Counted from the first letter of the stretch, positions 1-11,395 are shown. The stretch is 64,000 nucleotides of DNA from Bacteroidota bacterium (GCA_020444515.1 JAHLKX010000003.1:512997-576996), one strand, 5' to 3'. Notes: generated by a model not told the origin, from the sequence alone. Translations and numbers: made by a program.

Positions 1-3000
1 TATTTGATCAAAATGGGTCTCTTCTCGTGGGCACGGATCGGGGTGTGGATCGATTGAATCCTGAAAATAACACCTTTGAACAAATTGAACTAAAAACACG
101 AAATGCAGACTTCACAGGGGTTTCCGTATACACCCTTTATTTAGATATGGATGGAACCCTTTGGATTGGTACCGATAAGGGATTATTGCATAGCGATGCA
201 AAAGGTTCAATTGTCAGTCATTTTGAGCATCAACCCAAAAATAAGCGATCACTCAGCAACAATACCATCAATCAGGTGCTGAGGCTGAGTGATGGAACCC
301 TGGTGATCGCTACCAATGAGGGTCTCAATGTGTTCAATGATTCACTGCAAACTTTTACCCGCTATTTTTATAACCCCGAGGTAACAGAAAATCGCGAAAA
401 AAGCGAAATCCAGGCAATAGTTGAAGACAACAGGGGATATATTTGGATAGGTTCTTTTGGAGGTGGACTTTTAAAGACAAAACCAGGAACAGACAGATCA
501 GAGTTTTTCCTGTCGAATGCAGATAATCCGGAAAGCATTTCGAGCGATTATATCAATGCCCTTTATTTTGATGATGCAGGGATCATATGGATTGGTACCT
601 ACGGAGGAGGAATAAGTAAGATCGATCAGGTTCGCATCCGTTTTGAATCCATCCATCATGAATCCGGGAACGAAAATACACCATTAGGAAATGAAGTATA
701 TGCCATACACACCAATGAAAAATACCTTTTCTTAGGCACTGAAAAAGGGCTGAGCATTCGCGATCAAAGTACCGGTCGCTATTATCATTACAACGCATCA
801 TCAAGTCAGAACAAAAGCATTAGTGGATCAACCGTTTATAGCATTGAAGAAGACCATCTAGGAAATATTTGGGTCGGAACTGCCGGTAAGGGCTTAAACA
901 AAATGGTTCCGATTGACGGGGGCACTAAACCCTATAAAGTTGATACGGAATATAAAGTAACCACCGGTCATCATTCACTTATTGGGAACGAGATATTTTG
1001 TCTTTTGGAATCATCAGACAGCACATTGTGGGTAGGAACTAACAAGGGTATCAACCTAATTAAAAATGAAAAAATTATTGCCGGTTATGAATACAAACCG
1101 GATGACCAAAACACTATACCCGATGATGAAGTATATTCCCTGTATGAAGATCAAAATCATGAAATTTGGATTGGAACCTATCAGGGTCTCTGTCGTTTTG
1201 AAAAATCCGACAGTATATTCCTTCGGTTTGACGCTATCGAATCATTATCCAATTCCACGATTTATACCATCCTGCAGGATTCAGCAGGAATTTTTTGGTT
1301 GGGAACCGACAATGCAGGTTTGATCCGCTTTGAGCCTGAAAATAATGACCAGATCAAAATTTACAAAAGAGAGAACGGACTCCCTGACAATGTGATTTAT
1401 GGCATACTGGAGGATCAGGAAGGAAACCTTTGGATGAGTTCCAACAAGGGCATTTTTAAGTTGATGAAACAAATGGGTTCTGACAAGGTGACATTCCATA
1501 CATATAATGCTTCAAACTGGCTGCATACCGATGATTTCAATATAGGAGCCTACCATGAAGGCAAGGATGGAATGCTCTATTTTGGGAGTTTTGATGGGCT
1601 TACCTTTTTCCTGCCAGAAAATGTTAAGGGTAATGATTATGCTCCTCCCGTTCAGATTACCGGCTTCGAATTATTTTTTAAACCAGTCTCCATCTCGAAC
1701 GATGGAAGCACAGTTTTGTCGTCCAGTATTTCCGAAACTGAAAAGATTGAGCTCAAACACAATCAAAATGTTTTGAAATTTGAATTTGCTGCTCTCAATT
1801 TCATTGAGCCGGAAAAGAATATGTATGCATTCATGATGGAGAACCTGGAAAATGACTGGAACTATGCCAGGGGACAACGCGAAGCACAATACCTGTATTT
1901 GCCTCCCGGTAAATACCGGTTTCGTGTAAAAGCAGCCAATAATGATGGAAAATGGAATAACAAAGGAACGGCTATCGACATCATCATCAAACCACCTTTT
2001 TCCCAAACGATTTGGTTCTATATTATTCTCATTGGTGGATTGGCATTGATGATCTGGTGGGTCATGCACCTTCGAACCCGCCGGCTTAAAGTAATCCGTG
2101 ATCGACTAGAGGAACAGGTTCAAAAAAGAACTTTTGAACTAAGAGAATCCAACAAAAACCTCCAGGGTGAAATCAAGGAGCGTTTAAAGGTAGAAGAGGC
2201 ACTGAAAAAAAGTGAAGCACGATTCCGGCAATTGATTGATACAATGAATGAGGGATTTTCAGTACAGGATAAAGATGGAAAAATCAACTATGTTAATCCA
2301 CGACTATGTGAGATGTTTGGATATAAAGCCAGTGAAATCATCGGGCGTTATCCCACTGATTTTGTGGACAGGACTGATCCTCAAAACTTAAAAAAGTTTG
2401 CAGAAAATCGAGATATTGGTATTCAAAATGGAACCGTCGCATCTTACGAGTTAAAATGGCAACGAAAAGACGGAAGCATCTTTGAAACCGTGGTTTCTCC
2501 CAAACCCATCATTGATCCGCAGGAGGGATATACCGGAAGCGTGGCTGTTTTGACGGATATTACCGATCTGAAAAATGCTGAAAAAGAATTGCGTTCCAAA
2601 AATAAGGCACTCAACTCAGCACTGGACGATCTGCGCAAAACACAGGCTCAGCTCATCGATTCGGAGAAAATGGCTTCACTGGGTCAATTAACAGCAGGTG
2701 TGGCCCACGAAATCAATAACCCCATCAATTTTGTGAGTGGAAACGTTCAACCCCTGCGCCGCGATATACAGGACGTACTGGATGTCCTTCATCAATACGA
2801 CAGGATTATAGAAGCCCTCCATTTGGAGGATAAATTTGAAAAAATCGATCAACTTAAACAAGAGATTGATTTTGATTTTGTATTGAGTGAAATCAGTCAT
2901 TTGCTGGATGGGATAGGTGAAGGAGCCCAGCGAACAACAGAAATTGTAAAAGGATTGCGGAATTTTAGCCGGATGGATGAACACGAACTGAAATCAGCCA

Positions 3001-3434
3001 GTATCAATCAGGGCATCGAATCAACACTATTGATCCTGCATAATAAATTAAAGCAGCGGATTGAGGTCATCAAAGATTTCGGGAATTTGCCAGATATCAT
3101 GTGCTATCCGGGACAGCTTAACCAGGTATTTATGAACGTGATCAACAATGCACTGGAAGCCATAGAAGGAGAAGGAAAACTCATCATTCGTACATGGCAG
3201 GAAAAAGGATATATCAAAGTATCCATTAAAGATACGGGAAAAGGAATGCCGGAAAAGATCAAAAAGAAAATATTTGAGCCTTTCTTTACCACCAAGGAAG
3301 TAGGTAAAGGAACCGGGCTGGGTTTATCCATTAGTTTTGGGATCATCGAAAAGCACAAGGGTAGAATTGAGGTCAATTCCGAACCCGGAAAGGGCACTGA
3401 ATTTATTATGTTGATACCGGATAACCTGAATTAA
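1..3434 (+). CDS. Sensor histidine kinase: periplasmic beta-propeller repeats + Y_Y_Y domain, TM helix, coiled coil, PAS, DHp/HATPase. The 5' end lies upstream of the window.
   Basis: The frame stays open from nt 3 (FDQNGSLLVGTDRG). Repeated D..G.IWIGT..GL propeller motifs. Y_Y_Y-like KYRFRVKAANNDGKWN. TM IWFYIILIGGLALMIWWVMHL. PAS FRQLIDTMNEGFSVQD. H-box SEKMASLGQLTAGVAHEINNPINF. G-boxes DTGKGMP and GKGTGLGLSIS. No receiver or HTH domain. Confidence 0.9.
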   Translation, partial: FDQNGSLLVGTDRGVDRLNPENNTFEQIELKTRNADFTGVSVYTLYLDMDGTLWIGTDKGLLHSDAKGSIVSHFEHQPKNKRSLSNNTINQVLRLSDGTLVIATNEGLNVFNDSLQTFTRYFYNPEVTENREKSEIQAIVEDNRGYIWIGSFGGGLLKTKPGTDRSEFFLSNADNPESISSDYINALYFDDAGIIWIGTYGGGISKIDQVRIRFESIHHESGNENTPLGNEVYAIHTNEKYLFLGTEKGLSIRDQSTGRYYHYNASSSQNKSISGSTVYSIEEDHLGNIWVGTAGKGLNKMVPIDGGTKPYKVDTEYKVTTGHHSLIGNEIFCLLESSDSTLWVGTNKGINLIKNEKIIAGYEYKPDDQNTIPDDEVYSLYEDQNHEIWIGTYQGLCRFEKSDSIFLRFDAIESLSNSTIYTILQDSAGIFWLGTDNAGLIRFEPENNDQIKIYKRENGLPDNVIYGILEDQEGNLWMSSNKGIFKLMKQMGSDKVTFHTYNASNWLHTDDFNIGAYHEGKDGMLYFGSFDGLTFFLPENVKGNDYAPPVQITGFELFFKPVSISNDGSTVLSSSISETEKIELKHNQNVLKFEFAALNFIEPEKNMYAFMMENLENDWNYARGQREAQYLYLPPGKYRFRVKAANNDGKWNNKGTAIDIIIKPPFSQTIWFYIILIGGLALMIWWVMHLRTRRLKVIRDRLEEQVQKRTFELRESNKNLQGEIKERLKVEEALKKSEARFRQLIDTMNEGFSVQDKDGKINYVNPRLCEMFGYKASEIIGRYPTDFVDRTDPQNLKKFAENRDIGIQNGTVASYELKWQRKDGSIFETVVSPKPIIDPQEGYTGSVAVLTDITDLKNAEKELRSKNKALNSALDDLRKTQAQLIDSEKMASLGQLTAGVAHEINNPINFVSGNVQPLRRDIQDVLDVLHQYDRIIEALHLEDKFEKIDQLKQEIDFDFVLSEISHLLDGIGEGAQRTTEIVKGLRNFSRMDEHELKSASINQGIESTLLILHNKLKQRIEVIKDFGNLPDIMCYPGQLNQVFMNVINNALEAIEGEGKLIIRTWQEKGYIKVSIKDTGKGMPEKIKKKIFEPFFTTKEVGKGTGLGLSISFGIIEKHKGRIEVNSEPGKGTEFIMLIPDNLN

Positions 3435-3446
3435 ATACAATGTGAT

Positions 3447-4874
3447 ATGCTTAGAGATTTGTGGAAATTTATAACCCATATTGGAATTCATGACCAGATG
3501 TCGGTTTTTGATGAAAAAGCCATTAAGCTTATCAACCAGGTGAGTTTTGCAATGGTTTTTTGGTTTTTCCTCGTCGTTATTGCAGGCCTTTTTCATTTCG
3601 ACCGGTATGGTTTTGCAGTTTCACTGGCCAATGTATTACTGTTTGGTAGTGTTTTAGTAGTCAACTCTTTCAGAAACCTTGCCTTCAGTAAAAACTATTT
3701 TATGTTGTTTGGCCTGACCATGGTCACTTTTGTAAACCTTGCTTTCAATAGCTCAAATCTACCGATGGTGCAATTTGTTACTACCTCTCTTTTTCCGGTG
3801 CTGATCTTTCGGAATAATAAAAACGTTCTGGCCTATTTATTCGCAAATTTTTTACTTTTCCTTTTTGTTATGTACTATCATCAAAATTACGAACCATTAA
3901 TTCATGCAGTACACAAGGATACTATTTTGGCACCCTATTATAGTGTAATGATTATCATGATCGTTGCATTTCTTATTGCCTTCTTCTTCCGCAATGTGGG
4001 TGATGATTTGGAGCGAAAACTGGTACAAAAAAATAACTACCTCAATGACTTGATCAACAAAATGAAAACCATGCAGGAGCAGATGATCAATTCGGAAAAA
4101 ATGGCCAGTCTTGGACAGTTAACAGCCGGAATAGCCCACGAGATCAACAATCCGATCAACTTTGTTTCATCCAATATCAGCCCACTAAAAACCGACCTGA
4201 TCGAATTAAAGGAATTGTGTAAACAATATAAAAATCTACACAATGCAAAAGATCCGTCTGAAGAATTGAAAAAAATTGAGGGATACAGTTCAAAGATCGA
4301 TCCCGAATACCTCTATCAGGAAATTGAAACCCTCATCAGTGGTATCGAAGAAGGTGCCGGCAGGACCAAACAAATTGTTTTGGGTTTGAGAAGTTTTTCA
4401 AGGGTTGATGAAGATGAATTTAAGAAAGCTGATTTACATGAAGGACTTGAATCAACGCTGATGTTGCTTAAAAATAAATTAAAGAACCGGATAGAATTAA
4501 TCAAAGACTATGGCGAACTTCCGGAAATTGAATGCATTCCCGGAAAGATCAACCAGGTTTTCATGAACATACTGAACAATGCTGCTGAGGCCATTCCTGA
4601 TAAGGGAACTTTATGGATCACCACACGTAATCATCCGAAAAAAAATTCAATTGCCATATCCATTCGCGACAATGGGCCGGGGATGAAGGAAAGTGTTCGG
4701 AGAAGGATATTTGAACCCTTTTTTACAACAAAAGCCATCGGTAAAGGAACCGGACTCGGGTTATCCATTTCTTATGGTATCATTGAAAAACATAATGGGA
4801 ATATCGAGGTCATCAGCCAACCAAATAAAGGAGCTGAATTTATTATAACTTTACCGGTAGTTCAAAATATATAA
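3447..4874 (+). CDS. Membrane sensor histidine kinase (polytopic N-terminal domain + DHp/HATPase)
   Basis: About 6 hydrophobic segments in the first 190 aa. The H-box SEKMASLGQLTAGIAHEINNPINF is nearly identical to that of the upstream kinase. N-box MNILNNAAEA. G-boxes DNGPGM and GKGTGLGLSIS. Starts 12 nt after the upstream stop. Confidence 0.88.
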   Translation: MLRDLWKFITHIGIHDQMSVFDEKAIKLINQVSFAMVFWFFLVVIAGLFHFDRYGFAVSLANVLLFGSVLVVNSFRNLAFSKNYFMLFGLTMVTFVNLAFNSSNLPMVQFVTTSLFPVLIFRNNKNVLAYLFANFLLFLFVMYYHQNYEPLIHAVHKDTILAPYYSVMIIMIVAFLIAFFFRNVGDDLERKLVQKNNYLNDLINKMKTMQEQMINSEKMASLGQLTAGIAHEINNPINFVSSNISPLKTDLIELKELCKQYKNLHNAKDPSEELKKIEGYSSKIDPEYLYQEIETLISGIEEGAGRTKQIVLGLRSFSRVDEDEFKKADLHEGLESTLMLLKNKLKNRIELIKDYGELPEIECIPGKINQVFMNILNNAAEAIPDKGTLWITTRNHPKKNSIAISIRDNGPGMKESVRRRIFEPFFTTKAIGKGTGLGLSISYGIIEKHNGNIEVISQPNKGAEFIITLPVVQNI

Positions 4875-4886
4875 TCATACTAAACC

Positions 4887-5837
4887 GTGGAAAAGAAAGA
4901 ATTCACCATATTGTATGTCGACGATGAGGTTAACAACTTAATCTCGTTCAGGGCTACCTTCCGGCGTGAATATAAAGTGCTCACGGCTCAGGACGGACCG
5001 GAAGGATTACAGGTACTGACGGATAATGAAGTGCATCTGGTCCTCTCTGATCAGCGCATGCCAGGCATGACGGGAGTAGAATTTCTGGAGATTGTGAATC
5101 ATCAGTTTCCCGAAACCATACGGATGATCATTACAGGTTTCAGTGATATTGATGCAGTCATTGGCTCAATCAATAAGGGTGGAGTTTACCGATACATTGC
5201 CAAACCCTGGGATGAGCGGGAAATGCGCATGACCATTGAAAATGCACGTCAACTTTTCGGATTGCAGGAAGAAAATATCATTTCCCAGTTCGAAACACTG
5301 AAATCCCAGGTAAACCCGCATTTTTTGTTTAACAGCCTGAATGTTTTATCATCGCTTATTTTCATCGACCAGGAAAAAGCAGCCAGGTTTGTCCGGCAAT
5401 TATCAAAGGTATATCGTTATGTTTTGGATCACAAAGATCTGGATACCATTTCTCTGGAAGAAGAACTACCGTTCATTGAATCCTATATATATTTACTGAA
5501 AACCCGTTTTGATCAAAACCTTCAGGTAGAAATGGATATTCCACAAAAAATGCAACATTATAAAGTGGCACCCATGGTTATACAGTTGCTGGTTGAGAAT
5601 GCTATCAAACACAATGTCATTTCCAGGGGCAAACCCCTCAAGGTGACCTTATCTACCCATGAGCATGAGGGTTACCTTACCGTTCGCAATAACCTTCAGC
5701 TTAAGTCAAGTACCGAACGCTCATCGCAGATCGGACTCACCAATATCCGGAAACGTTATGACTATCTTTCCGGAAAAAAAATTGAAATTATCAACGACCA
5801 TGAATATTTTACGGTAAAAATTCCATTATTGGATTAA
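4887..5837 (+). CDS. Receiver domain fused to a LytS-family (His_kinase/GHKL) histidine kinase core, no TM segments
   Basis: GTG start gives MEKKEF, which matches the paralog MEKKDF at 6629. REC with DDE..., phospho-Asp in LSDQRMPGMTG, and KPW. LytS-type H-box QVNPHFLFNSLN (His codon 5319-5321). N-box LLVENAIKHN. GLTNIRKRY. Confidence 0.85.
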   Translation: MEKKEFTILYVDDEVNNLISFRATFRREYKVLTAQDGPEGLQVLTDNEVHLVLSDQRMPGMTGVEFLEIVNHQFPETIRMIITGFSDIDAVIGSINKGGVYRYIAKPWDEREMRMTIENARQLFGLQEENIISQFETLKSQVNPHFLFNSLNVLSSLIFIDQEKAARFVRQLSKVYRYVLDHKDLDTISLEEELPFIESYIYLLKTRFDQNLQVEMDIPQKMQHYKVAPMVIQLLVENAIKHNVISRGKPLKVTLSTHEHEGYLTVRNNLQLKSSTERSSQIGLTNIRKRYDYLSGKKIEIINDHEYFTVKIPLLD

Positions 5838-5848
5838 AATCTTAAACC

Positions 5849-6607
5849 ATGAATGTACTGATTATTGAAGACGAACCTTTTGCACAACAGGAATTGATCC
5901 GATTGCTGAAACGCATCAATCGTGAAATCCATGTAATGGCATGCCTTGATTCGGTAGAAGAGAGTGTTAAATGGCTGATCAACAGTGAAAAGCCTGATTT
6001 GATTTTTATGGATATTCAGTTGTCTGATGGACTGAGTTTCGAAATTTTTGAACAAACAACCGTTTCAACACCGGTGATCTTCACTACGGCATTTGATGAT
6101 TATGCCATCAGGGCATTTAAGGTGAATAGCATCGATTACCTCCTCAAACCCATTGAAGAAGAAGAGCTGGAGCGTGCCATTGAAAAATTTCAGAAAAGTC
6201 ATACCGATGGTGATGGATATTTTAGTAAGCAACAACTGGAAGAAGTGCTGGGTTTGTATCGTCCGGCTTATAAATCCAGACTGGTTGTAAAACTTGGTGA
6301 TAAGATCAGACATATTGAAGCCAAAGACATCGCCTTTTTTTTCTCTGAAGATAAAGTATCCTTCCTGATTACCAATGAAAGCAAAAAATATATCATTAAT
6401 TATACCCTTGAGCAGATTGAAAAATTTATGAATCCAGCCGATTTTTACAGGCTAAACAGGAAGTATATCGCTCATATCAATGCCATTGAATCCATTGACA
6501 AATATTTCAACAGCAGGCTGAAGATCGGGCTGAAGCCCGAAGTTGAGGATGATGTGCTCATCAGCCGTACCAAAGTAGCTGATTTTCTCAACTGGTTGGA
6601 ACGTTAA
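5849..6607 (+). CDS. LytR/AlgR-family response regulator (REC + LytTR DNA-binding domain)
   Basis: REC with IIEDEP, FMDIQLSDG, TTAFDDYAIRAFKVNSIDYLLKP. The C-terminal LytTR pattern (YRLNRKYIAHINAI, ISRTKV) is highly similar to the ORF at 15924-16694. Confidence 0.9.
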   Translation: MNVLIIEDEPFAQQELIRLLKRINREIHVMACLDSVEESVKWLINSEKPDLIFMDIQLSDGLSFEIFEQTTVSTPVIFTTAFDDYAIRAFKVNSIDYLLKPIEEEELERAIEKFQKSHTDGDGYFSKQQLEEVLGLYRPAYKSRLVVKLGDKIRHIEAKDIAFFFSEDKVSFLITNESKKYIINYTLEQIEKFMNPADFYRLNRKYIAHINAIESIDKYFNSRLKIGLKPEVEDDVLISRTKVADFLNWLER

Positions 6608-6628
6608 TTAATCTATAATAGATAAAAA

Positions 6629-7723
6629 ATGGAAAAGAAAGACTTTAATATACTCTATGTTGATGACGAAGAACAAAACCTCTTCTCTTTCAAAGCTACC
6701 TTTCGTCGAGAATACAATGTTTATACAGCCATTAGCGGTAAAGAGGGAATGGAGATCATGCACAACAATGATATTCATCTGATCATTACTGATCAGCGGA
6801 TGCCTGAAATGACCGGCATACAGTTTCTGGAAAAGATACTACCGGTTTATCCCGATCCCATTCGCATGATTCTGACAGGTTTCAGTGATGTTGAGGCGAT
6901 CATCGAAGCGATCAATACAGGACGGGTATTCCGGTATATCACCAAACCATGGGATGAACGGGAATTGAGGATGACCATTGAGAATGCCAGGCAAATTTAT
7001 AACCTGCAATCACGGAACAAATCACTTGTTTCACAACTCCAACAGAAAGTTGAGGAACAAGAAAAGACATTAAAATTATTTATGAAATATGTCCCTGAAC
7101 AGGTGGTACAAAAATCGCTTAGCCAGAAAGAAGGATCTATATTCGAAGGGGATTCTCGCGAAGTAGCAGTTCTGTTTTGCGACATCAGGGGTTTTACACC
7201 CATGAGTGAAGAATTGACACCACCCGAAGTTGTTAATTTCCTGAATGACTATTATGGATTAATGACACGCATTATCAAACGGCACAATGGAACCGTTACC
7301 CAATTTGTAGGTGATGAAATATTTGCCACATTCGGGGCTCCCATGGTTCAGGAAAACAATGAAGAACTGGCTGTTTTTTCTGCCATCGAGATGATTGAGG
7401 CATTGGTCGAACTGAATCAGAAATATGAAGGAAAACTCAAACATGAAATCCAGGTAGGCATCGGTATCAACTATGGCGAAGTGGTCATGGGGAATGTTGG
7501 TTCAGAAGACCGGATTGAGTTTGCCATAACCGGTGATACCGTCAATACGGGTAAACGGATTGAAATGCTGACCAAAGAGTTTCCAAACTTGATACTGATC
7601 CGCGATCGGGTGTTTGACAAAACGAAAAACCTGATTGAAGCCAGGGAATGGGAAGCGGTAAATGTGAAAGGAAAGCGTGATAAGATAAAGGTTTATGAAG
7701 TGATCAGCAGAAAAAACAGTTAA
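6629..7723 (+). CDS. Receiver domain fused to a class III nucleotidyl (adenylate/guanylate-type) cyclase domain
   Basis: The REC is paralogous to the 4887 ORF (ITDQRMPEMTG, KPWDEREL). Cyclase motifs: VLFCDIRGFT, FVGDEIFATFG, GIGINYGEVVMGNVGS, ITGDTVNTGKRIE. Confidence 0.88.
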   Translation: MEKKDFNILYVDDEEQNLFSFKATFRREYNVYTAISGKEGMEIMHNNDIHLIITDQRMPEMTGIQFLEKILPVYPDPIRMILTGFSDVEAIIEAINTGRVFRYITKPWDERELRMTIENARQIYNLQSRNKSLVSQLQQKVEEQEKTLKLFMKYVPEQVVQKSLSQKEGSIFEGDSREVAVLFCDIRGFTPMSEELTPPEVVNFLNDYYGLMTRIIKRHNGTVTQFVGDEIFATFGAPMVQENNEELAVFSAIEMIEALVELNQKYEGKLKHEIQVGIGINYGEVVMGNVGSEDRIEFAITGDTVNTGKRIEMLTKEFPNLILIRDRVFDKTKNLIEAREWEAVNVKGKRDKIKVYEVISRKNS

Positions 7724-7810: not shown

Positions 7811-7818
7811 TATATTTG
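7811..7818 (+). promoter_or_regulatory. Bacteroidota-type -7 promoter box TATATTTG
   Basis: Matches TAnnTTTG, 24 nt upstream of the ATG at 7843. Confidence 0.45.
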
Positions 7819-7842: not shown

Positions 7843-8502
7843 ATGAGGAGGTTGATATTCATCCTGTTAATTTTACCTGGGCTGATGGTTATGGCACAGG
7901 AAGAGGAATTCAAAACAATTTTTGGTTCAGACTATTCATCTGGAGGCTATGGAGCCCCCGAACTTAAACTCGGAAATGTAAATCATAATATGAGTTTACT
8001 TTTGGGAGGACGGGGTGGCTGGATCATTGGTCACCGTTTTGTATTGGGAGGCGCCGGATATGGCCTCACCACAAGCAATACATTTGATTATACTGAAAAA
8101 TTATACAATGCCAATGGCAGCCTGATCGACTCTACAAGGAACCTTAGGCTTGACATGGGATATGGGGGTGTTTTACTGGAATATATTGCTTTCCCAAAAA
8201 AAGCAATACACCTTTCCTTTCCGTTGATCATTGGCGCTGGCGGCGCTTCTATCGGTTCACAGATCAATCAAGATCCCAACCAGTTGGATCCGGTAGAATG
8301 GACTACTTATGATTATGTGGAAAGTTCTGCATTTTTCATTGTTGAACCCGGAATCAGTCTCGAAATGAATATGACCAAATTTTTCAGGTTGAACCTTGGG
8401 GCAACCTATCGTTTTATTTCCGGTACGACCCTTCAACGAATGGATAGCAATGATCTTTCTGACCTGTCATTCAGCCTGGCGCTGAAGTTCGGAGCATTTT
8501 GA
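7843..8502 (+). CDS. Small secreted Gly-rich protein, probable outer-membrane beta-barrel
   Basis: Signal peptide MRRLIFILLILPGLMVMAQ. Alternating hydrophobic pattern. C-terminal LALKFGAF ends in Phe as in OMPs. No family recognised. Confidence 0.6.
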   Translation: MRRLIFILLILPGLMVMAQEEEFKTIFGSDYSSGGYGAPELKLGNVNHNMSLLLGGRGGWIIGHRFVLGGAGYGLTTSNTFDYTEKLYNANGSLIDSTRNLRLDMGYGGVLLEYIAFPKKAIHLSFPLIIGAGGASIGSQINQDPNQLDPVEWTTYDYVESSAFFIVEPGISLEMNMTKFFRLNLGATYRFISGTTLQRMDSNDLSDLSFSLALKFGAF

Positions 8503-8509
8503 CAGCATC

Positions 8510-11239
8510 TTATTCCAACAAATAATTTTTAACTTCCCGGCCATTGGCAATGATCAGATTTGTAATATCATCATTGTTGATGCTCCCTGCAGTAAATCCA
8601 GTTGTTCCTGCAATGCGGATACCATCAAACTTTCTTCCTCCAGCATCAAGCAAAATCACTTCTCCGCTCCCCGATAATAAAAGTCCCATTAAAACCTGGT
8701 CGTTTCCATAGTCAATGATCGCTGGTTTATGGCCAACAGGTGATGATAGCGTATAATTTAAAATTTCTTTTTTAAACCGATTGTAAACGACGACGACTGG
8801 TCCATCAACAAAAATAAAATCCATAGCGCCATCCCTGTCAAAATCTTCATAGAAAAAATAATGTCCGGAAGAAAAATCACCAAATGAAGTATAATTCAAC
8901 TGACCACTTTCATCAATGTAAACAAGTTGACCTTTTGAATTGGTTGTGAGGAAAAGTCCGTTCGAATTGGTTTTATTGATATAAAATATTGAATTTTCAG
9001 CTTTTTCAATCTTCTTTTTCAGTCGAATCCTTTGATCTCCGCGACGATCGGTTATGATCACATGTCCGTTTTTGTCCGTCACAAAGAAAAAATCTTTACC
9101 ATCTGCAATCAAATGCTGGACCGGTTGCTGAACTTCTGATTTTGCCTGGATATTGGTCCACCCATCTACCCTTTGCATTGACTTGTCAAAATTATATACG
9201 CGGTTATCATTAAGGGCCATCACAAAACGATAATCATGATCATTGTCATAATCAAAACAGGCAACTGGATTGGTCGATGTTTGTAGCAATTTTATTGGAT
9301 AGTCTGCCACATAATCTCCATTCAAGTCTATAAGATAGATGTAGTTCTTCGTGTTGAACAGGTATTGAAACTTACCGTTTCCATAGTAATCGATCTGGGT
9401 CATTTCTCCAAGTGGCGGTTCGATAAGGGGCAATTTCCACTTGACCTTGCCAATATGATCGGCCAGATACATATTGTTATCAACATCAAAAACTACAGTA
9501 TTCAGTTTGTTATTCCTGTGATTCCGAATAAACCATGGTTGCCCTGAGACATCAGCTTCCGTTTTGAAAGACCAGGTGGAAGGATTGATTTCCTGATAAT
9601 CAGGGTTGTATTTCAAATACACATTGGTGTAAAACATTTGGTTTATGTAACTCAGTTGCAAAGCAAATCCTTCTATGTTACCCAACGTCCCTGCATTATC
9701 CTGAATCCAGTTATTCAAAGGGCCATCAAGCATTGCTCCCGACAGGCTGGCAGACTTGCGAATATTGCAATAGAGAAAAATATTGGATTTATCAGAAATA
9801 TTATTGGAGAAAGACTGATAATTTATATTTGACTGTAAGGTTTTACCCTTATAAAAATTATCAATAACGTACTTCAAAATTTCGATTGAATTGGCAAATA
9901 CGATATAGTCTTTGATCAGGATGTAATAATTATCGGTCATTCCTCTGAACAGAGGACCAAACAGAACCTCCGTCAGGTTTTTAGAATTGATCTTTCGAAT
10001 TTGATAATCACCATATTTTACTTCATAGGGTTTGATTAACTGACGACGGTTTATTTTATCTGAAGCTTCTTGAAGTGAAAGACGGGCCTTAAGGATGTCG
10101 GTGGTTTTAATAAGAACAAGCAATTCTGCATCATATTCCTGGTCATGATTAATCCCAGCCACCGCAAATTCATTACCAATCCATGATATGAATTCATCAT
10201 ACGGTGATATGCTGAATTTATCTTTATAAGACTTCAATTGCGCCAGTACCTCCATTGAATCCGATCGCTGCTCCAGGTAGGCTGCATAGAAATTTTCAAA
10301 TTTTTCCACACCAAAATGGGCCATATAGGCCACATTATAAGGCAAGATTTCAGGGATGGTAATAGCCTGGGGGGTCTGTGCGAAGCAGTCCAGCAATTGG
10401 GGTTCGGTTCCTTTGGTTATGGAATATCCATTTAATAATACCTCATCATTATTGATCACCATATCAGCTTCACTCCAATCCCAGGAGCGACCCAGATTAT
10501 GAAACAGGGGTGCGAAATCTTTATTTCCCAGTGATGCTGACCATGGGCCAAAATTGGGTCCATAAACATAAAGATTGGCATCCACTTTATGACCCGCTGT
10601 ACCACTGACTTGCTGAAAAGATGCTTCTTTCGATAATGGAGAACCGGAAGTCATATGGGCAATGGATTCCTTTAACAAGGCTTCATTGAATGATCCGGCA
10701 AAAATGCCCCGATACACAGTAAAATAAAAAAAAGTGTTTTGTGCTGGGAGATTCACCACCTTAATTTTTGCCTTCTGGTATGGCTTTTCCATGATGATGC
10801 TTTGTTTTCCGTTGATGTCTTTTACAATGTCATCAACCGAATTAGTCATCAACGATTTCGGCATGGGAATCAAAAATAAGGGAAGCAGTACATTATTTTC
10901 GTCAGGATGAAGGGAAATAATTAACCTGGAAGATTTCAGGGATTGACTAAATGAGGGATTGGAAGCCAATGCCGAATCCATAAATGCAACCTGATGATGA
11001 AAATTTTGAAAAGCCTCTATTCCCGATAGATATTCCCATATTTCCGTCGCGTTCAAGGTAGAATAAACGCCTGCGGGATCTGGAATCTCGAGATAAGCAA
11101 CTACAGAAGGGGTGATGGCCGAAATGGGGGATACATCAGCTACCTTGGTCTTAAAATAAAGCCTGTAACCGAAGAAGCCAGCCCCGGCAACGATACAAAC
11201 AAGAAAAATGATCAGGATTGTTTTCCAGGTATTTGACAT
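8510..11239 (-). CDS. Large (909 aa) N-terminally membrane-anchored protein of unknown function with a propeller/FG-GAP-like C-terminal half
   Basis: Uninterrupted 909-codon ORF. N-terminal TM ILIIFLVCIVAGAGFFGY. Acidic loops in the C-terminal half resemble FG-GAP/VCBS calcium-binding loops (FDYDNDHDYRF, DFDRDGAMDFIFVDG, INNDDITNLIIANG). Confidence 0.7.
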   Translation of the reverse strand: MSNTWKTILIIFLVCIVAGAGFFGYRLYFKTKVADVSPISAITPSVVAYLEIPDPAGVYSTLNATEIWEYLSGIEAFQNFHHQVAFMDSALASNPSFSQSLKSSRLIISLHPDENNVLLPLFLIPMPKSLMTNSVDDIVKDINGKQSIIMEKPYQKAKIKVVNLPAQNTFFYFTVYRGIFAGSFNEALLKESIAHMTSGSPLSKEASFQQVSGTAGHKVDANLYVYGPNFGPWSASLGNKDFAPLFHNLGRSWDWSEADMVINNDEVLLNGYSITKGTEPQLLDCFAQTPQAITIPEILPYNVAYMAHFGVEKFENFYAAYLEQRSDSMEVLAQLKSYKDKFSISPYDEFISWIGNEFAVAGINHDQEYDAELLVLIKTTDILKARLSLQEASDKINRRQLIKPYEVKYGDYQIRKINSKNLTEVLFGPLFRGMTDNYYILIKDYIVFANSIEILKYVIDNFYKGKTLQSNINYQSFSNNISDKSNIFLYCNIRKSASLSGAMLDGPLNNWIQDNAGTLGNIEGFALQLSYINQMFYTNVYLKYNPDYQEINPSTWSFKTEADVSGQPWFIRNHRNNKLNTVVFDVDNNMYLADHIGKVKWKLPLIEPPLGEMTQIDYYGNGKFQYLFNTKNYIYLIDLNGDYVADYPIKLLQTSTNPVACFDYDNDHDYRFVMALNDNRVYNFDKSMQRVDGWTNIQAKSEVQQPVQHLIADGKDFFFVTDKNGHVIITDRRGDQRIRLKKKIEKAENSIFYINKTNSNGLFLTTNSKGQLVYIDESGQLNYTSFGDFSSGHYFFYEDFDRDGAMDFIFVDGPVVVVYNRFKKEILNYTLSSPVGHKPAIIDYGNDQVLMGLLLSGSGEVILLDAGGRKFDGIRIAGTTGFTAGSINNDDITNLIIANGREVKNYLLE

Positions 11240-11265
11240 TGTTTTTGAACTGAATTGCAGATTAA

Positions 11266-11273
11266 CAAAGTTA
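11266..11273 (-). promoter_or_regulatory. -7 promoter box TAACTTTG (minus strand)
   Basis: Plus-strand CAAAGTTA, 27 nt upstream of the start at 11239. Confidence 0.4.
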
Positions 11274-11344
11274 AACTATTGCATTTTAACAATAGATTTT
11301 ATACGCCATTAAAGTTAACATGGATTTGTTAATTATTGCAAACG

Positions 11345-11370
11345 AAAAAAGGCCGGTAAAATTACCGGCC
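11345..11370 (-). terminator. Rho-independent terminator downstream of the 11396-12145 gene
   Basis: GGCCGGTA-AAAT-TACCGGCC 8-bp stem. On the minus strand it is followed by TTTTTT. Confidence 0.7.
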
Positions 11371-11395
11371 TTTATTATAGTTCAAATCCGATCAA

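Follow-up and report, generated by a model that had tools for sequence, protein, structure and literature searches.

Gene content of the cluster

The window considered here, that is the whole analysed stretch of 64,000 nucleotides from a Bacteroidota bacterium (GCA_020444515.1 JAHLKX010000003.1:512997-576996), opens with a Bacteroidales cluster of five genes of two-component signalling, referred to in gene order as HK1, HK2, REC-kinase (REC-LytS type), LytTR regulator and REC-cyclase. Genomes and loci are designated by G- and L-numbers, respectively: the window corresponds to G000:C10:512997-576996, and L002 is the locus that includes its 5' flank. A preliminary description of this DNA had listed five same-strand genes at these positions; all are present, separated by gaps of 12, 12, 11 and 21 nucleotides, and the domain architectures claimed for them are borne out by Pfam:

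1..3434, + strand: HK1, C-terminal 1143 of 1286 residues, reading frame open at the 5' end of the window
3447..4874, + strand: HK2, 475 residues, HisKA and HATPase_c (Pfam)
4887..5837, + strand: REC-kinase, 316 residues, Response_reg and His_kinase PF06580 (E 5.4e-25)
5849..6607, + strand: LytTR regulator, 252 residues, Response_reg (D8, D55, T80, K100) and LytTR
6629..7723, + strand: REC-cyclase, 364 residues, Response_reg and Guanylate_cyc

The flanking DNA places the true start of HK1 at L002:9571, 426 nucleotides 5' of the window, giving a full length of 1286 residues with the Pfam order Reg_prop repeats, Y_Y_Y, PAS, HisKA and HATPase_c. A signal peptide and periplasmic Reg_prop propellers with Y_Y_Y precede a single transmembrane segment (residues 813-831), and the cytoplasmic part consists of PAS, DHp (His1045) and CA domains, in which none of the H, N, G1, F and G2 boxes is missing. 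The N-terminal half of HK2, which matched no Pfam family, contains at least four hydrophobic segments, and hence multiple membrane passes, and is followed by a DHp domain (His231) and a CA domain with every catalytic motif kept. According to Pfam, neither kinase carries a receiver or a DNA-binding domain (HK1 ends after HATPase_c), confirming that they have no such output of their own.

REC-kinase is built from an N-terminal receiver (D12, D13, D55, T83 and K106, invariant across 16 diverse homologues), a short helical linker, a PF06580 DHp domain (His145) with the NPHFLFN His box of this family, and a CA domain (N-box E237 to N243). No hydrophobic segment was found in it, which points to a soluble protein in which the multi-pass 5TM-Lyt-type sensor is absent and a receiver occupies the N-terminus. 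The LytTR regulator, whose gene starts 11 nucleotides 3' of the REC-kinase gene, is presumed to be its cognate partner. In REC-cyclase, the receiver leads through a coiled-coil linker with a transducer element (FMKYVP at residue 151) to a class III nucleotidyl cyclase domain. Gene content and domain integrity are shown directly: no catalytic or phospho-acceptor residue is missing from HK1 and HK2, from the LytS-type core, from the cyclase or from any of the three receivers.

Mutual paralogy of the kinases and of the receivers

Between the kinase cores of HK1 and HK2, identity amounts to 55% over 282 residues, and their H-boxes, SEKMASLGQLTAG(V/I)AHEINNPINFVS, differ solely at the V/I position, in agreement with the near-identical H-boxes and similar ATPase domains first noticed. 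The receivers of REC-kinase and REC-cyclase share 60% identity over 138 residues, slightly less than the 63% over 127 residues of the earlier hand alignment, and both have, as described, Asp55 within DQRMPxMTG, together with D12, D13, T83 and K106; the receiver of the LytTR regulator is just 26% identical to these two sister receivers. In a six-frame search of the whole G000 assembly, HK1 and HK2 are mutual nearest kinases (55%, next best 37%), and the sister receivers are likewise mutual nearest (62%, next best 32-37%). Both sister types fall into a single clade of the receiver tree, on a long branch with support 96/99, in which cyclase receivers are nested among kinase receivers.

Within the genome, the core of REC-kinase (48%) and the LytTR regulator (47%) find their closest relatives in two canonical LytS/LytTR pairs, one of which sits in the window at about 15.9-17.7 kb. 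The nearest paralogues of both proteins come from these same two loci and are members of the same pairs, which indicates that REC-kinase and LytTR regulator arose by duplication of a LytS/LytTR pair, in which a receiver replaced the membrane sensor.

Outside the window, the same genome also holds seven tandem histidine kinases at G000:C3:413812-440521 (L120, L121): four with propeller and Y_Y_Y domains, one of 2497 residues with a SnoaL-like N-terminus, one with TPR and one short. One H-box, AHEIQNPLNFVNNFSEV, is common to six or more of these kinases. After the array come a receiver without further domains and a second REC-class III cyclase; this cyclase has the canonical Lys and is kept by most species of the genus. 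This array looks like a larger parallel system, in which many kinases may feed one cyclase.

A putative receiver-controlled kinase of the LytS type

Receiver-controlled kinases are common in genomes, but to our knowledge few of them have been studied, and every one of these is of the HisKA type. REC-kinase belongs to another DHp family, and the spacing between its receiver and its kinase core takes few values: among 120 homologues, receiver Lys106 and the phospho-accepting His are separated by 39 residues (74 proteins), 46 residues (4) or 60 residues (42), with no other values, corresponding to linker steps of 7 and 21 residues. In the LvrB class of receiver-controlled kinases, linker lengths favour multiples of seven, and in LvrB itself receiver phosphorylation leads to coiled-coil formation in the linker, by which the catalytic domains are freed (PMC13269768).

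The AlphaFold model of REC-kinase (pLDDT 81) has LvrB (8VC9) as its best full-length Foldseek match, with an E of 1.7e-13, all domains covered and a TM-score of 0.35, low because the model is monomeric and its linker uncertain; the kinase half matches GanS, a kinase of the PF06580 type. Could REC-kinase be a pseudokinase, as its CA domain has no DxGxG motif? This idea was rejected, since the motif is absent from all eight LytS-type kinases aligned from G000.

The receiver-linked cyclase and its substrate residues

The closest solved structure to the catalytic domain of REC-cyclase is the guanylyl cyclase Cya2 (2W01, E 3e-35), followed by its E488K adenylyl variant (6FHT, PMC5995499), and the metal-binding D185 and D229 as well as the transition-state N306 and R310 align to Cya2. 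The substrate-specifying pair is Q225/A299, with Q225 aligned to Glu488 of Cya2. This is no canonical pair, neither adenylyl (Lys/Asp, Lys/Thr) nor guanylyl (Glu/Cys, Glu/Gly), and it is a property of the family, which is mostly from Bacteroidota and 63-70% identical across classes: Gln is present in 119 of 120 members, and the second site is Ser (83) or Ala (34). Other cyclases of G000 have Lys at the first specificity site.

The Gln/Ala pair leaves the cyclic nucleotide product uncertain from sequence. A further proposal, which we hold to be doubtful, is that this family makes a product other than cyclic AMP (cyclic GMP, a mixed product or a pyrimidine cyclic nucleotide) under dedicated cognate kinases, and that in this genus it is coupled to a LytS-type receiver-controlled kinase cascade; if true, one envelope signal would set both transcription and a non-canonical second messenger.

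A proposed branched pathway from two kinases to two outputs

Taken together, the cluster is probably, if far from certainly, a multi-step branched two-component pathway placed on an outer-membrane uptake and sensing front end. HK1 would read a periplasmic signal via its propeller/Y_Y_Y domain, probably jointly with two proteins encoded just upstream, the TonB-dependent receptor and the YfiR-like protein, the latter being translationally coupled to it, while HK2 would read a second, membrane-associated signal. With one common DHp specificity surface, the two kinases would phosphorylate Asp55 of both sister receivers. On the first branch, phosphorylation of the receiver would switch the LytS-type core through the heptad-quantised helical linker, either direction of the switch being conceivable (LvrB is activated, CheS3 inhibited), and REC-kinase would then phosphorylate the adjacent LytTR regulator to change transcription, possibly that of the uptake genes themselves. 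On the second branch, the receiver would control a homodimeric class III cyclase via the coiled coil and the transducer element, leading to a cyclic nucleotide.

These phosphotransfer steps and outputs are what we infer. The wiring gains indirect support because HK1 and HK2, and likewise the sister receivers, have only each other as close paralogues, because the same kinase core and H-box occur beside REC-cyclase in independent lineages, and because the REC-kinase/LytTR pair is recurrent. The branched wiring of the preliminary description is supported in part, with the reservation that HK2 and the cyclase turn out to be only accessory.

Variants of the cluster within the genus

Conserved neighbourhoods were observed in a comparison of G000 with 24 other species of its genus, in which loci were annotated. 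The full cluster occurs in four of the 25 species (G000, G016, G018 and G020) and on one metagenome contig. G024 has HK1, REC-kinase, LytTR and REC-cyclase; G005 and G009 have two receptors, DUF4249, DUF4154, an HK1 without PAS, REC-kinase, LytTR and a gene for a 219-residue protein, with neither HK2 nor cyclase at these loci. HK2 is therefore present in G000, G016, G018 and G020 and absent from G005, G009 and G024, and the idea that HK2 and the cyclase always travel together was rejected, G024 having the cyclase without HK2. Because sister species lack HK2, or both HK2 and the cyclase, the genus core consists of the receptor, the YfiR-like protein, HK1, REC-kinase and LytTR, with HK2 and cyclase as accessory genes. 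In some species (G005, G009), REC-kinase is the only local receiver partner of HK1. These sister species form a natural "deletion series" of the cluster.

In G024, the HK1 orthologue (L092:3-2094) is split just before the CA domain into frames of 600 and 100 residues, either by a frameshift or by an assembly error.

Does HK2 represent an independent input? It might instead form a heterodimer with HK1 or modulate it, as RetS modulates GacS, the two then making up one integrated sensor complex. Such a role would suit a DHp helix alpha-1 identical to that of HK1 but for a few residues, a sensor half that matches no known ligand-binding family, and the finding that no HK2 occurs without HK1 in the loci examined. 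We nevertheless judge it rather unlikely, as all catalytic motifs of HK2 are intact and the protein is conserved at 61-78% identity across its four species, while the seven-kinase array, with its shared H-box ahead of a receiver and a REC-cyclase, suggests that inputs in this genome generally run in parallel.

Modules of the cluster beyond the genus

Adjacent REC-kinase and LytTR genes were found in G238, Flexithrix, Aureispira and two metagenome lineages. The pair stands alone in L085, L087 and L095, and has a kinase with a different H-box nearby in L004 (Aureispira) and L097 (Flexithrix). A propeller kinase, REC-kinase and REC-cyclase are consecutive in L098, and REC-kinase and REC-cyclase are neighbours in L003. 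In four unrelated loci (L098, L101, L117 and L118), a kinase lies 10-20 nucleotides 5' of the REC-cyclase orthologue; its core is 46-60% identical to those of HK1 and HK2, its H-box is AHEINNP[IV]NFV as in both of these, and its sensor domains are unrelated to theirs (e.g., 4HB_MCP-HAMP in L101). From this distribution, the kinase/REC-cyclase pair appears to be ancient. REC-cyclase is an orphan in L099, L100 and L116. Flexithrix dorotheae has a REC-cyclase gene as well as the REC-kinase/LytTR pair, the two lying at unlinked sites, and a REC-cyclase is also encoded by Chondrinema litorale.

The kinase/REC-cyclase pair is thus the widely conserved unit, and most REC-kinase/LytTR pairs elsewhere have no kinase of the HK1/HK2 type within 10 kb. 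Would HK1 and HK2 then feed REC-cyclase only, the receiver of REC-kinase being served by a kinase encoded elsewhere, or acting mainly as a competing phosphate sink that tunes the cyclase, instead of switching a LytTR cascade? Against this stand G005 and G009, which keep HK1 directly 5' of the REC-kinase and LytTR genes with no cyclase at all, the receiver helix alpha-1, nearly identical in REC-kinase and REC-cyclase, and the heptad-quantised linker, which is expected of a regulatory coiled coil; such a cyclase-only arrangement seems to us quite unlikely, and a kinase signal split between both receivers is preferred.

For the phylum, 400 high-quality Bacteroidota genomes were sampled, with five first-look candidates scored per genome, so that the counts are lower bounds: REC-kinase was found in at least 1 and REC-cyclase in at least 4 of the 400, with no overlap. 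A scan of genome contigs with the REC-kinase alignment returned, among the matches listed, mostly ordinary membrane LytS kinases, and only L003 and L004 at full length. REC-kinase and REC-cyclase are nevertheless adjacent or nearly so in the genus, L003 and L098, and this adjacency of two rare genes in at least two distant lineages exceeds chance expectation.

Could these genes still be neighbours without a functional link, that is, separate two-component systems joined by rearrangement? A patchy gene order among the species of the genus would fit this, as would the finding of the modules apart from each other elsewhere; yet the exclusive mutual paralogy of kinases and of receivers, the adjacency in at least two distant lineages of families found in roughly 0.25% and 1% of sampled genomes, and intergenic gaps of merely 11-21 nucleotides make such an accidental assembly most improbable.

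A separate arrangement is found at L108:4472-9385, where the gene of a PAS kinase, whose core has 48% identity with those of HK1 and HK2, precedes that of a REC-PAS-HisKA_3-HATPase protein, whose receiver is 44-48% identical to the sister receivers; a 207-residue receiver protein and a DUF4154 gene lie beyond. A receiver of the sister type appears there to have been grafted onto a different kinase family.

Several points weigh against the branched pathway. The exact five-gene order is confined to four of 25 species of one genus. REC-kinase lies beside the cyclase with no adjacent LytTR gene in L098 and L003, and no kinase of the HK1/HK2 type was found near REC-kinase/LytTR or REC-cyclase in L085, L087, L095, L096, L099, L100 and L116; linkage is therefore not obligatory. 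The heptad pattern of the linker may reflect as few as two insertion or deletion events, the REC-kinase model is monomeric, with a pLDDT below 50 at residues 128-141 (the linker) and the TM-score of only 0.35 to LvrB, and the CA domain has no DxGxG G1 box. Finally, the promoter and terminator assignments given below are motif matches only.

The upstream front end and the extent of the unit

The genes that precede HK1 in the flank of the window, and the gene 3' of the cluster, encode the following proteins:

L002:2609-3316, + strand: 235-residue secreted protein, 5' end of the cluster
L002:3338-5710, + strand: TonB-dependent receptor 1 (CarboxypepD_reg-type), 5' of DUF4249
L002:5722-6561, + strand: DUF4249 lipoprotein, 5' of TonB-dependent receptor 2
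L002:6679-9012, + strand: TonB-dependent receptor 2 (Plug domain), 5' of the DUF4154 gene
L002:9033-9581, + strand: DUF4154/YfiR-like protein (PF13689, E 3e-32), signal peptide
7843..8502 (window), + strand: 219-residue secreted protein, signal peptide, no family match

The end of the DUF4154 gene overlaps the start of HK1 by 11 nucleotides, and from receptor 2 to the cyclase stop no gap exceeds 21 nucleotides. The only sizeable gap of the upstream stretch lies between DUF4249 and receptor 2, and contains a terminator-like 12-bp hairpin with a T-rich tail, then the boxes TATATTTG and TAAATTTG close to the ATG of receptor 2 (L002:6679). In Bacteroidota the -7 consensus is TAnnTTTG, and the hairpin and a TAnnTTTG box before receptor 2 are kept in six of the seven genus loci. 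A sigma-70 promoter scan gave 58 sites, no excess over the 56.8 found in shuffled sequence, and the two-box Bacteroidota promoter pattern showed no excess either; promoter inference thus used only the position and conservation of single TAnnTTTG boxes. From this layout, we infer co-transcription of seven genes, namely receptor 2, DUF4154, HK1, HK2, REC-kinase, LytTR and REC-cyclase. The unit would hence not be limited to the five genes first described, and most likely begins upstream of the window, at TonB-dependent receptor 2 and the YfiR-like gene.

What could the YfiR-like protein contribute? By analogy with YfiR and YfiN (PMC4655355), it probably modulates the periplasmic domain of HK1. 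A six-frame search found a single DUF4154 gene in G000, and a sample of 61 genomes of the order had the family in 26. Elsewhere, DUF4154 genes encode small secreted proteins directly 5' of kinases, including a CHASE8 hybrid kinase, and also adjoin TonB-dependent receptors.

DUF4154 also occurs in fusions in other families of the same order (L110-L113, L115). In L110:5914-8367 (- strand), it is fused N-terminally to a PAS-histidine kinase with a core of the HK1/HK2 type, and it is joined to SpoIIE/PP2C phosphatases in L111:8043-9989, L112:6213-8681 (- strand), L113:7607-10426 and L115:3210-5624, with PAS in three of these four. Since it is fused to both kinases and phosphatases, DUF4154 would be a general periplasmic input module, beyond the role of a free repressor.

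Genes flanking the cluster

Whatever the variant within the genus, the 219-residue gene adjoins the 3' end of the cluster, and it probably has a promoter box of its own (TATATTTG, window 7811-7818). The 219- and 235-residue proteins, which flank the whole cluster, are paralogous (26-29% identity), Gly-rich and secreted, and match no family; the pair is kept with the cluster in all genus variants, and a third paralogue lies at C3:46806-47447. On the opposite strand, window 8510-11239 (-) holds a convergent neighbour of 909 residues with only a weak DUF3352 match (E 8e-12), which adjoins the cluster in the closest relative too. One metagenome contig, a close relative, has the genes of a restriction enzyme (XcyI-type) and of an N6/N4 methyltransferase (L083:16578-18381) between the 909-residue gene and the gene after it; the open reading frames of the window leave no space for this pair at the matching position, about 11240-11395.

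Comparison with known systems

Two-component networks that branch or employ several kinases are established, and so are receiver-controlled kinases and fusions of a receiver to a cyclase. The preliminary description knew of no characterised example of this exact wiring. The logic of the cascade is in fact known from LvrA/LvrB/LvrC (PMC13269768) and CheA3/CheS3/CheY3 (PMC3868531), and what we did not find described is the combination of parts. A literature search by DUF4154 and by domain combination found no study of this system, nor did we find descriptions of a LytS-type receiver-controlled kinase with a LytTR partner, of its pairing with a sister receiver-cyclase, or of a Gln/Ser(Ala) cyclase family with a cognate kinase. 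The cluster offers a compact natural case in which the same receiver module is carried by a LytS-type kinase and by a cyclase, each receiver standing beside probable cognate kinases. With it, one can test directly how a signal is split between transcription and a second messenger, whether the heptad-linker model of activation holds beyond HisKA kinases, and which substrate a class III cyclase of the Gln/Ser type uses.

The nearest precedent for REC-kinase is LvrB of the LvrA/LvrB/LvrC system of pathogenic Leptospira, the prototype receiver-controlled histidine kinase (PDB 8VC9), whose receiver is phosphorylated by an upstream kinase and which then phosphorylates its own response regulator (PMC13269768, PMC5863495). 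Both proteins combine an N-terminal receiver, a signalling helix, and DHp and CA domains, with heptad-stepped linker lengths. However, the DHp domain is HisKA-type in LvrB and PF06580 (LytS/YesM-type) in REC-kinase, the two proteins are only about 15% identical in sequence, and the partner is an anti-sigma-type regulator in the former and a LytTR regulator here, where a sister receiver-cyclase branch is added. The CheA3/CheS3/CheY3 system of Rhodospirillum centenum resembles the proposed wiring in leading from a kinase to the receiver of a second kinase and then to a final response regulator: one kinase phosphorylates the CheS3 receiver, and only CheS3 phosphorylates the final regulator, receiver phosphorylation being inhibitory, opposite in sign to LvrB, and relieving the output (PMC3868531). 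This system is nevertheless Che-type and chemoreceptor-fed, without a cyclase branch, and belongs to a different phylum. With canonical LytS/LytTR systems (e.g., BtsS/BtsR, PMC10653868), REC-kinase has in common the PF06580 DHp domain, the lack of DxGxG in the CA domain and the LytTR gene next door, at 47-48% identity to the pairs of the same genome, but it is soluble, with a receiver instead of the multi-pass membrane sensor.

Likewise, REC-cyclase has the metal-binding and transition-state residues of Cya2 from Synechocystis (PDB 2W01; PMC5995499), with a transducer element before the core, but Cya2 combines Glu488 and Gly with a CHASE2 sensor, whereas the REC-cyclase family has Gln and Ala/Ser and a receiver input. 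HK1 shares with Bacteroides hybrid two-component systems the periplasmic Reg_prop and Y_Y_Y sensor and the adjoining TonB-dependent receptors; in the hybrid systems, a receiver and an AraC domain are fused to the kinase, whereas HK1 has neither, its output residing on separate proteins.

As for the front end, NCBIfam comes nearest with its models for TOL_0243, a YfiR-like protein, and for TOL_0244, a receptor, the scores lying below the cut-offs in both cases (96 against 125 and 69 against 645 bits), and equivalog membership was not reached for NF053591 or NF053586 (96.4 against a cut-off of 125 bits, 44.5 against 85). In YfiBNR (PMC4655355) and TOL_0244/TOL_0243, as here, a secreted DUF4154 protein is encoded just before a presumed membrane signalling partner, with the gene of an outer-membrane partner alongside. 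In YfiBNR these partners are the diguanylate cyclase (GGDEF) YfiN and the outer-membrane protein YfiB; in the present cluster, by contrast, the YfiR-like protein is linked with a histidine kinase, and the outer-membrane protein is a TonB-dependent receptor.

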